A stretch of 64,000 bases of DNA from Escherichia coli (GTDB lineage: Bacteria; Pseudomonadota; Gammaproteobacteria; Enterobacterales; Enterobacteriaceae), in NCBI RefSeq assembly GCF_046105845.1, contig NZ_CP151004.1; one strand, written 5' to 3'. A program made the position numbers and the translations under genes. Within the stretch, counting starts at the first letter, position 1; each line of letters opens with the position of its first letter. The notes beneath the pieces are model-generated. The model was not told the DNA's origin and ran no database searches. It worked only from the letters and a program-made list of their open reading frames with translations. Of this stretch, positions 54,801 to 63,088 are shown in pieces.

Positions 54801-56423
54801 AAATTGCTGGCGGAAGTAATCGTAAATAATGCGCGGCTGACTGGAGAGCACGGCGAATGGGGTGTCGTCGCCCATCGAACCGACCGCTTCCTGACCGTTT
54901 TCGCCCAGTACGCGAATTACGGAGTCCAGCTCTTCCGCGCTGTAGTTAAACTGTTTCTGGTAGCTGGCAAGTGTGTCGTCGTCCAGTTCGCGGCTACCTA
55001 CTTCTTCATCGGGCAGATCTTCAAACGGTACCAGTCGGCGGACGTTTTTCTCCATCCACTCTTTATATGGATGGCGGCTTTTCAGATCGTCATCGGTTTC
55101 TGCCGAGTGCAGAATACGCCCACTGCGGGTGTCGATAACCATCAGTTCGCCTGGCCCGACGCGGCCTTTTTCGACCACTTCGTCAGGCTGGTAATCCCAG
55201 ATACCGACTTCAGAGGCGCAGGTGATGAGCTTATCTTTGGTGATGACGTAGCGCGCCGGACGCAGACCGTTACGGTCGAGGTTACAGGCAGCGAAGCGAC
55301 CATCGGACATCACGATGCCCGCCGGACCATCCCACGGCTCCATATGCATGGAGTTAAAGTCAAAGAAGGCACGCAGTTCCGGGTCCATATCCGGGTTGTT
55401 CTGCCAGGCGGGTGGTACTAACAGACGCATGGCGCGGATGATATCCATCCCGCCTGCCAGCAGCAGTTCCAGCATGTTATCCATCGAACTGGAGTCAGAA
55501 CCGGTTTCGTTGACGAACGGCGCGGCGTCGTGCAGGTCAGGGATCAGCGGCGTCTGGAATTTATAGGTACGTGCGCGCGCCCATTGGCGGTTACCGGTGA
55601 TGGTGTTGATTTCACCGTTATGCGCCAGGTAGCGGAACGGCTGCGCCAGCGGCCAGCGCGGTACGGTGTTAGTGGAAAAGCGCTGGTGAAACAGGCAGAT
55701 GGCCGATTCCAGACGCAGGTCCGCGAGGTCCAGGTAGAAGCGCGGCAGATCCGCCGGCATACACAGACCTTTATAGATGTTCACCAGATTCGACAGGCTA
55801 CAGACGTAGAAGTCTTTGTCGGCTTCGAGACGCTTTTCAATGCGGCGGCGGGCGATAAACAGACGGCGCTCCATATCGCGCGGACGCCAGCCTGCCGGGG
55901 CGTTCACAAAAATTTGCTCAATGCGTGGCAGAGAGGAGAGGGCGATTTCACCCAGCACGCCTTCGTTAGTGGGGACATCACGCCAGCCCACAATCGACAA
56001 CGTTTCGCGTTGCAGCTCTTCTTCAACGATGTGGCGTGCGGCAGCAGCGAGTTCAGGATCTTTATTCAGGAATAGCATCCCGACGGCGTAGTTTTTTGCT
56101 AAACGCCAGCCGCGCTCCTGCGCAACGATGCGAAAAAAGCGATCCGGTTTTTGTAACAGCAAGCCGCAACCGTCACCGGTTTTACCATCGGCGAGAATCG
56201 CGCCACGGTGCTGCATGCGGGCCAGTGCGTGTATTGCAGTACGCACTACCTTGTGGCTAGGTTCGCCTTCTATGTGGGCGATCAGGCCGAAACCACAGTT
56301 ATCCCTCTCAAGGGATTTATCGTACAACATATCGTGAACCTCCCCCAGGCTCTGCGGGAACCCCACTTCCGAACCGCTGCGCACGGGCACAGAAAGAGCG
56401 TGGCGACGGGGGTTGCGTGTCAT
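51870..56423 (-). CDS. gltB: glutamate synthase large subunit
   Basis: About 1517-aa product from the ATG at 56423 ([14 protein letters not shown]...), including the propeptide before the Cys of [11 protein letters not shown]. Confidence 0.96.
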
Positions 56424-57004
56424 ACGCGCGCCTCGCATTCGCCCCCTTGTTGTCCTTTTCGCATCGGTTAATACGGTGAAGAGGGGATCTCAATTACTGC
56501 ATAAATATGATGAGCAGGCTGCTCATCCAGAAAGCTTCCAGCGGATTTCCAACTTATCGGGAAAGCTGATACAGGTCAAATGGCAAGCTTATTGGTACAG
56601 AAATGTGCTTTAGCGCAAAATTCTTTATTAAATGGCTGAAATTAAAATAGATTTTATCTTTAAGGCTAAAAGGGAAGTCGTTAGAGAAACAGTCAATTCC
56701 TGACTGTCATAAAGGCGTGTTAACCCTTATCCTGCCTTGAACTGACGAGAAAACCAGCATTTTATACTGCCTTAATTGATAATGACGTTTCATGCTACTG
56801 TTTTTGCCTAAAATCCATAAGGAGATAAAAAAATCTGACACAAGATAAGCAAAAGTGATTTATGTGATTATGCATGAAATTTCGGTAATTTTGATTGATT
56901 ATGCAGTTGATAAAAGCAGGCCGGGACGATTGATCCAGGTCATCGCCGAATTGGGCTAAAAATGGCAGGCTTTGGCCTCTTTTCAAGGCGCGGTCTATCA
57001 GATT
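56424..57004. promoter_or_regulatory. divergent gltB / yhcC promoter region
   Basis: 580-bp AT-rich intergenic region between divergent starts; contains a 19-bp perfect palindrome at 56509-56527. Confidence 0.5.
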
Positions 57005-62670: not shown

Positions 62671-62815
62671 ATGCTTCTTAAGGTTTTCTTAAGGTTCTTC
62701 TGAAAGTAAAAAGCGCACGAAATGTACAATTGACGTTGATTGAGAACGATTTCAGTACGCGCTTTTCTTATTGCCGGGGGAGCTTGAAGGGATTTGAATG
62801 TCAAAGTGATGAAGA

Positions 62816-63088
62816 TTAATCTTCATCAAAACCAGAGTTAAAGAGGGCGATAACGGCGGCCAGTGCTTCCTCTTCCTGTGGACCGGTCGCTTCAACTTCA
62901 ATCTGCCGTCCTTTGGCAGAATCCAACATCAGCAGCGCAATAACGCTGTTGGCTTCAGCCTCGGTGCCTTCGTCATTACGTAACAGCACTTCAGCGTCAA
63001 AACCTTGCATTAATTCAAACAGCTTCATTGCAGGCCGGGCATGCATGCCCAGCTTGTTTGTGATTTCAACAGTTTGCTTGACGGTCAT
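62816..63088 (-). CDS. npr: nitrogen-PTS phosphocarrier protein NPr
   Basis: 90-aa HPr-like ORF ([20 protein letters not shown]...), with the active-site His in GMHARPA. Confidence 0.93.

Follow-up and report, generated by a model that had tools for sequence, protein, structure and literature searches.

What is the role of a perfect palindrome lying upstream of gltB, in the gltBDF operon of Escherichia coli that encodes glutamate synthase? The palindrome, GATGAGCAG-G-CTGCTCATC, was noticed in a 64,000-nucleotide (nt) stretch of contig NZ_CP151004.1 (hereafter, the window), on which gltB occupies the minus strand, and an earlier note proposed that it might be the binding site of a dimeric regulator or, if transcribed, a leader hairpin. 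The repeat is present as described at window positions 56509-56527, where the plus strand reads GATGAGCAGGCTGCTCATC, with two 9-nt arms that are 100% complementary and a spacer of 1 nt. On balance, we consider it probable that this element is a conserved cis-acting structure of the leader RNA and neither a DNA operator nor a terminator.

The position of the palindrome relative to the gltBDF transcription start was derived from published regulator sites. The Crp site of gltBDF has been placed at -76..-55, with its centre at -65.5 (Paul et al. 2007, PMC1784095), and the mutagenic primer used in that study identifies it as AATTTTGCGCTAAAGCACATTT, corresponding to window 56622..56601 on the minus strand; these coordinates therefore place +1 at 56546. 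Leader positions are counted here from 56547, and subtraction of 1 gives the numbering of PMC1784095. The promoter block TTGACC-N17-TAAGTT-GGAAATCCGC is kept in every Enterobacterales genome examined and is recognisable, as TTGACC...GATAAGTTGGAAATCCGC, in Plesiomonas, Photobacterium, Vibrio (Vibrionaceae) and Aeromonas. The transcription start rests on the numbering of Paul et al. 2007 together with this promoter conservation, and it follows from a start at 56546/56547 that the palindrome makes up +21..+39 of a 5' leader of ~217 nt. Transcription of the leader is further supported by RNA recovered from its downstream part by Hfq-CLASH and by one Term-seq 3' end inside it. The two features concerned are:

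56546-56579, minus strand: gltBDF promoter and start, with the -35 element TTGACC at 56574-56579, the -10 element TAAGTT at 56551-56556 and the start at 56546/56547 (+/- 2).
56509-56527, minus strand: hairpin P1, the reported palindrome, at leader +21..+39, reading GAUGAGCA-GCC-UGCUCAUC in the mRNA.

As RNA, P1 comprises an 8-bp stem (56520-56527 with 56509-56516) closed by a 3-nt loop (56517-56519). To trace its history, gltB loci were taken from 80 species, and the first 74 nt of 45 Enterobacterales leaders (38 distinct sequences from Enterobacteriaceae, Erwiniaceae, Yersiniaceae and Pectobacteriaceae) were aligned without gaps. The stem proved highly variable, with 32 distinct 19-mers among the 38 distinct leaders and the E. 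coli arms in only 9 of the 45, and yet about 91-92% of the cells remained paired. Both-sided changes were found in 6 of the 8 pairs, and the number of double-change cells reached 55, compared to 16.9 in column shuffles, none of 500 of which attained the observed value. When the partner was slid by 1-3 columns as a control, pairing dropped to 24-54%. The alignment also contained 26 G·U cells, and the arms pair better in the sense orientation (91%) than in the antisense one (83%), the latter being weaker because G·U cells become A·C on the opposite strand. Covariation combined with G·U pairs on the sense strand thus points to an RNA helix on the gltB sense strand. The palindromy of the DNA itself is perfect in only 11 of the 45 leaders. 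Mean column identity was 73% for the stem and 57% for the loop, but 94% and 96% for the 5' and 3' flanks, respectively. P1 is transcribed and is selected to pair on the sense strand, and in the flanks strong selection acts on the primary sequence. The proposal of a leader hairpin is accordingly borne out, and the earlier note's expectation that a functional element should be conserved in related species holds for the structure but not for the sequence.

The same arrangement was recovered beyond these leaders. A covariance model located it, with stems of unrelated sequence, in Photorhabdus (UCAGAU/AUCUGA), Hafnia, Rouxiella and Rosenbergiella and, at the same place, in Photobacterium, where the unrelated stem is GACGAUC/GAUUGUC; by eye, it is also discernible in Plesiomonas and P. 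pectinilyticum, and TTATGCAGT alone is retained upstream of gltB in Aeromonas. Within E. coli, the spacer between gltB and the divergent yhcC (which, like arcB, is on the plus strand) was matched in 5416 of 5426 complete genomes, and the first 60 nt of the leader were 100% identical in 5381 of these 5416, compared to only 1858 with at least 99% identity over a 701-nt region spanning the spacer. The one variant inspected, from E. coli strain 23CRST011, carries an A-to-G change at 56526 in the 5' arm of P1, which converts an A-U pair to G·U, the same intermediate as for the G-C pair fixed in Pseudescherichia, and also turns the AUG within the arm into GUG.

The argument for a non-chance origin of the palindrome, as seen in these alignments, rests on conservation and covariation. 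Perfect inverted repeats with arms of 9 bp or more and a spacer of 0-5 nt numbered 1.75 +/- 1.6 per 64 kb in a first-order Markov simulation of the window, and those with a spacer of 1 nt numbered 0.4, whereas the window itself contains 11 nested inverted-repeat entries at ~7 sites, mostly terminator-like, so that a single such palindrome per 64 kb is unremarkable. By proportion, ~0.02 such palindromes are expected in the 674-bp yhcC-gltB spacer. The hairpin, folded as RNA, has an energy of -11.1 kcal/mol (z = -2.4), and 5 of 200 shuffles were equally good. That the palindrome arose by chance and has no function, which the expectation of ~0.4 occurrences with a 1-nt spacer per 64 kb would allow, is nevertheless scarcely credible and can be regarded as already refuted, given that compensatory change keeps the structure in at least four Enterobacterales families and beyond. 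The longest palindrome of the window lies elsewhere, at 62807-62828, where TGATGAAGATTAATCTTCATCA forms a perfect 22-bp palindrome with no spacer.

The conserved neighbourhood of P1 can be described by four further features:

56528-56547, minus strand: 5' flank AAUCCGCUGGAAGCUUUCUG, leader +1..+20.
56492-56508, minus strand: 3' flank AUAUUUAUGCAGUAAUU, leader +40..+56.
56496-56542, minus strand: predicted helix P0 around P1, pairing GCUG (56539-56542, +6..+9) with CAGU (56496-56499, +49..+52) in RNAalifold and minimum-energy folds.
56486-56547, minus strand: tentative whole 5'-terminal domain, +1..+62, with an outer helix of +1..+4 (AAUC) and +59..+62.

The octamer CUGGAAGC (56534-56541, +7..+14) in the 5' flank is invariant in the 45 leaders, as is UUAUGCAGU (56496-56504) within the 3' flank. 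The latter flank holds a mini open reading frame (ORF), AUG-CAG-UAA (56494-56502), and a 12-nt complement of the small RNA (sRNA) FnrS (56492-56503), and Photorhabdus, Photobacterium, Plesiomonas and Aeromonas likewise carry its motif ahead of gltB. P0 is 100% paired and nearly invariant; in Photorhabdus, it is lengthened to 7 bp (GUCACUG/CAGUGAC) through changes on both strands. Between P0 and P1, an internal loop is predicted in which the invariant nucleotides of GAAGCUUUCUG face those of AUAUUUAUG. The outer helix is thermodynamically marginal and does not appear in minimum-energy folds, with 93.8% of its cells paired; its partner strand at +59..+62 is GAUU in most genera and GAUC in E. coli, and at pair 2-63, 33 sequences have AU, 5 have GC and 1 has GU. 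In the predicted folds, a conserved RNA domain of ~50-60 nt occupies the 5' terminus of the gltBDF mRNA, with P1 as its apical helix. Conservation of this domain extends beyond Enterobacterales to Photobacterium and Plesiomonas, and in Aeromonas its 3' strand can still be recognised; each E. coli genome has the leader element once.

The leaders also differ downstream of this domain. In alignment columns 72-98 (near window 56470-56480), a hairpin, AAGCAAGUCCUCAAACUUGU, is present between the 5' domain and the GCGAAAAGG block in all other Enterobacterales leaders examined and lacking in E. coli alone, where its loss looks like a lineage-specific deletion. Judged by eye, pairing would be possible between CCCUCU, which follows the 5' domain, and AGAGGG, which belongs to the AAAGAGGGCGA block (56481-56491 and 56436-56447, minus strand); the counterparts are CCCCUC and AGGGGG in E. 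coli and CCCCC and GGGG at another locus. The two may form a long-range helix in competition with an alternative pairing to CUCUU, which lies further downstream.

If the palindrome acted as DNA, a dimeric transcription factor bound just past the start site would block RNA polymerase. The perfect 9+1+9 symmetry in E. coli and the location at +20..+39, which suits roadblock repression, are consistent with this, and a ChIP-exo report places binding of the LysR-type regulator YiaU somewhere near gltB. However, the half-sites are not conserved, as seen from the scarcity of the E. coli arms and the diversity of the 19-mers, and the G·U cells break the symmetry of the DNA. Moreover, the mapped sites of gltBDF are those of Crp at -65.5, IHF at -75..-113, Lrp at -152, -215 and -246, and ArgR at -361..-318, with an Fnr site marked as unconfirmed (PMC1784095), so that comparison with the Lrp, IHF, CRP and ArgR sites, all upstream of -50, finds no counterpart of the palindrome; in footprints of DNA that extends as far as +51 to +161, Lrp, IHF, Crp and ArgR are upstream of the start and RNA polymerase is at the promoter. 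The covariation pattern therefore excludes a sequence-specific DNA operator, and we consider the dimeric-site proposal of the earlier note largely refuted and very improbable. A different use of the hairpin, together with AUAUUUAU, would be as a weak intrinsic terminator or attenuator, or as a hairpin-dependent pause, early in gltBDF transcription. Indeed, a consensus scan flags a minus-strand hairpin of 8 pairs, 4 of them G-C, with a 3-nt loop followed by ATATTTATGC; the tail AUAUUUAU is kept in 32 of the 38 distinct leaders, and the stability of P1 would be compatible with such a role. The U-tract, however, is interrupted (5 U in 8, longest run 3), the conserved sequence extends beyond the needs of a terminator into GCAGUAA, and inspection by eye reveals no competing antiterminator that would pair with the 5' flank. 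Term-seq under three conditions (Adams et al. 2021) detected no 3' end near +45..+50 and no Rho-termination region, although RNAs shorter than 50 nt may be under-sampled, and the lack of a 3' end at the hairpin is evidence against termination, which we regard as unlikely. Translation offers another possibility: P1 would fold out 19 nt between a Shine-Dalgarno-like GGAAG (+9..+13) and the AUG at +46, creating a split ribosome-binding site, such that translation of AUG-CAG-stop modulates the downstream leader and would be blocked by the sRNA RyhB. The AUG at +46..+48 is invariant in all 38 distinct leaders and is also found in Photorhabdus, Photobacterium, Plesiomonas and Aeromonas, codon 3 is UAA, UAG or UGA depending on the lineage, and the size of the hairpin is constant. 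Yet GGAAG is a weak Shine-Dalgarno sequence with a long effective spacing of ~13 nt, codon 3 is UUA or UUU in 5-6 lineages, the ORF spans just 2 codons and differs in length among distant taxa; we therefore view the split site as quite doubtful. The other AUG, within the arm at +22, is lost in 15 of the 38 leaders.

Binding of the anaerobic sRNA FnrS to UAUGCAGUAAUU, just 3' of P1, with consequent repression of gltBDF, would explain a reported effect of FNR, consistent with the unconfirmed status of the Fnr site. The match to FnrS, whose sequence was verified, falls on nt 63-74 and consists of a 12-nt perfect complement plus one G·U (duplex of -17.5 kcal/mol); in FnrS, the segment concerned, GAAUUACUGCAUAGCAC, is unchanged in Klebsiella, Dickeya and Serratia. 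When FnrS was compared across six genera (Klebsiella, Dickeya, Erwinia, Pantoea, Serratia and Arsenophonus), however, Erwinia and Pantoea were found to carry a C-to-A change opposite the invariant leader G51, with no trans-covariation, and FnrS of Arsenophonus lacks the loop sequence. FnrS-complementary 12-mers number 2 in the window against ~0.85 expected in random sequence (a hand estimate), a local duplex search with FnrS nt 44-94 found equally good scores in 8.9% of random 74-nt windows, 5 of the 12 FnrS nucleotides are in a stem of FnrS, and the leader motif, being kept in Aeromonas and Photobacterium, is older than the FnrS loop. No link between FnrS and gltB was found in the literature searched. 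Because of the 12-mer counts, the absent covariation with the leader and the greater age of the leader motif, we rank FnrS low and think it improbable as the partner. In all six genera, FnrS is encoded directly downstream of zntB, and its first 60 nt are nearly invariant; stem-loop II has the C-to-A change in Erwiniaceae and is divergent in Arsenophonus.

Several other candidates were rejected. Resemblance to a sigma-54 promoter, a Nac or LysR box, a K-turn or the glutamine riboswitch was dismissed by eye, with key positions unmatched or not conserved. Antitermination of the boxA/boxB (nut-like) type was likewise set aside, the only boxA-like string, GCUCUUUCUG, being 110 nt downstream and variable (GCCCUU, ACCUUA and others). 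The sole Term-seq 3' end in the leader (Adams et al. 2021), at MG1655 3354657, corresponds to window 56398 (+150), just past a GGCGA...UCGCC hairpin, where that boxA-like string (56390-56399) has its 5' edge, in the region 56388-56465 (+83..+160); the site may be a leader attenuator or a processing site. 

Returning to a conserved leader RNA structure as the preferred explanation, its 5'-terminal domain probably serves as a post-transcriptional control module. P0, and perhaps the outer helix at the 5' end, would close around P1 and bring the flanks side by side as an internal loop, so that P1 would act as a scaffold of fixed size presenting the flanks to trans-acting factors. The most concrete candidate for such a factor is RyhB, although we put forward the docking step only tentatively. 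The octamer CUGGAAGC is an exact 8-nt complement of the RyhB core GCUUCCAG, with a predicted duplex of -16.2 kcal/mol in a local search; the RyhB sequence was checked against 5424 E. coli genomes and Rfam RF00057, in which the core is upper-case in the consensus and family-invariant. The same octamer occurs in a fragment of the sdhC 5' untranslated region (UTR). In Table 1 of Wang et al. 2015, gltB is a putative RyhB-repressed gene; 10 min of RyhB expression gave a Ribo-seq value of 1.06 (P = 0.014) and an RNA-seq value of 0.23, with no RNA change. Pairing of Hfq/RyhB with CUGGAAGC would open P0 and the 5'-terminal structure, and docking would lower the synthesis of glutamate synthase, an iron-sulfur (Fe-S) enzyme, when iron is scarce. 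Pairing of RyhB with both flanks as a three-way junction was ruled out by hand, since the complementary segments are in the wrong 5'-3' order. More generally, it is possible, if speculative, that P0, the invariant internal loop and P1 together make up an undescribed RNA motif, which takes in the first ~60 nt of the gltBDF mRNA. The loop of this motif would bind a specific factor (a protein, a small molecule or an sRNA with Hfq, for instance RyhB) by which the output of glutamate synthase is set post-transcriptionally.

A number of observations count against the domain and its proposed partner. Shuffled sequence folds as well as the whole leader does (z = -0.15), covariation provides no test of P0 or the outer helix because both are almost invariant, and the outer helix is mismatched in E. 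coli and Pectobacteriaceae. The RyhB match could be due to chance, with 1.45% of random 74-nt windows pairing equally well with the core; the complementary site is ~200 nt from the gltB ribosome-binding site and partly paired within P0, and the Ribo-seq call for gltB was not validated by Wang et al. 2015. Furthermore, the presence of UUAUGCAGU extends to taxa in which the candidate partners fail to match it, and no experiment on the P1 hairpin was found in the literature searched.

Direct evidence for the leader as an sRNA target comes from Hfq-CLASH, in which the only chimera involving the gltB leader joins it to GcvB at +83..+112 (56436-56465); two other gltB entries map inside the coding region. 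The GcvB chimera is the only direct evidence of this kind that we found.

Compared with known RyhB sites, such as those of E. coli sdhC and V. cholerae gltB1, the gltB candidate is alike in targeting an Fe-S enzyme and in sharing the octamer of the sdhC 5' UTR, but differs in being ~200 nt upstream of the ribosome-binding site, which the known sites overlap. The pairing at the gltB leader is itself predicted, and P1 is outside the predicted conserved duplex. V. cholerae gltB1 is cited as a RyhB target in the literature. Glutamate synthase is also targeted by iron-sparing sRNAs in Gram-positive bacteria, as in the S. aureus IsrR-gltB2 and B. subtilis FsrA-gltAB pairs, and is a recurrent target of this kind. 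Iron-sparing control of the enzyme is already documented in Vibrio, Staphylococcus and Bacillus, and the RyhB link, if true, would supply a concrete, testable site at which E. coli exerts such control over an abundant Fe-S enzyme.

The gltB leader can also be set beside other structured 5' ends. The ompA 5' UTR of E. coli reportedly has a 5'-terminal stem-loop in a long-lived mRNA, as Emory, Bouvet and Belasco are said to have described in 1992. Both leaders are long and have, at the 5' end, a structured hairpin domain conserved in enterobacteria, with U-rich single strands beside the stems that are able to bind Hfq or sRNAs. P1, however, is separated from the 5' end by 20 nt, which is too great a distance for P1 alone to give protection, and only the tentative outer helix, mismatched in E. 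coli, would pair the gltB 5' end. Intrinsic terminators and attenuators resemble P1 in combining a G-C stem-loop with a U-rich sense tail and differ from it in the interrupted U-tract, the antiterminator that was not found and the missing Term-seq 3' end. Rfam cis-regulatory leader families share with the element its 5' UTR position, covariation, conserved loops and single gene context, but an Rfam 15 scan of the yhcC-gltB spacer at E <= 10 returned no family match, only noise at E >= 0.67. No paper describing the leader hairpin was found in the accessible literature, which did not extend to older gltB papers.

gltBDF encodes one of two routes of ammonia assimilation, and studies of its control have so far dealt mainly with the promoter and the regulators Lrp, IHF, Crp and ArgR. 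A covarying leader structure with invariant flanks indicates a post-transcriptional control point which, if true, would add an RNA layer to the operon. Reporter fusions ending at +8 would miss the leader element, and fusions extending to +246 would include it but not reveal it.

The distance between the palindrome and gltB depends on the start codon chosen, and three candidates are available on the minus strand: ATG 56438, giving the longest ORF; ATG 56423, the historical K-12 start (MTRNPRR..., the 1517-amino-acid form); and ATG 56330, the start in RefSeq PGAP, which is preceded by GGGGGAGG. The start DNA ATG-TTG-TAC-GAT, from 56330, is kept in 65 other genomes, and the stretch 56331-56423 shows indels in the alignment with lengths that are not multiples of three. 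On this comparison across genera, ATG 56330, and not 56423, is the true start of gltB. The palindrome had been reported 86-104 nt upstream of the gltB start; the arithmetic is right from ATG 56423, but the distance becomes 179-197 nt from 56330. The corresponding features are:

56328-56330, minus strand: gltB start codon, from RefSeq and cross-genus conservation.
56336-56352, minus strand: invariant Shine-Dalgarno hairpin GAGCC-UGGGGGA-GGUUC, from the leader comparison.

In Vibrionaceae, Aeromonas and Pseudoalteromonas, the Shine-Dalgarno hairpin is replaced by GCAA-GGGAGAn-UUGC, with the same architecture and a different stem; a GGA in a hairpin loop resembles a CsrA site.

Further upstream, on the gltB-sense (minus) strand, EcoCyc G0-10702 contains a Term-seq 3' end at 56914 (window 56909-56935), which precedes the gltB start site by ~368 nt and is 91 nt away from the start of yhcC. 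An Hfq-dependent 'yhcC-gltB' sRNA has been reported in E. coli by an RNA-seq study cited in PMC4070566.

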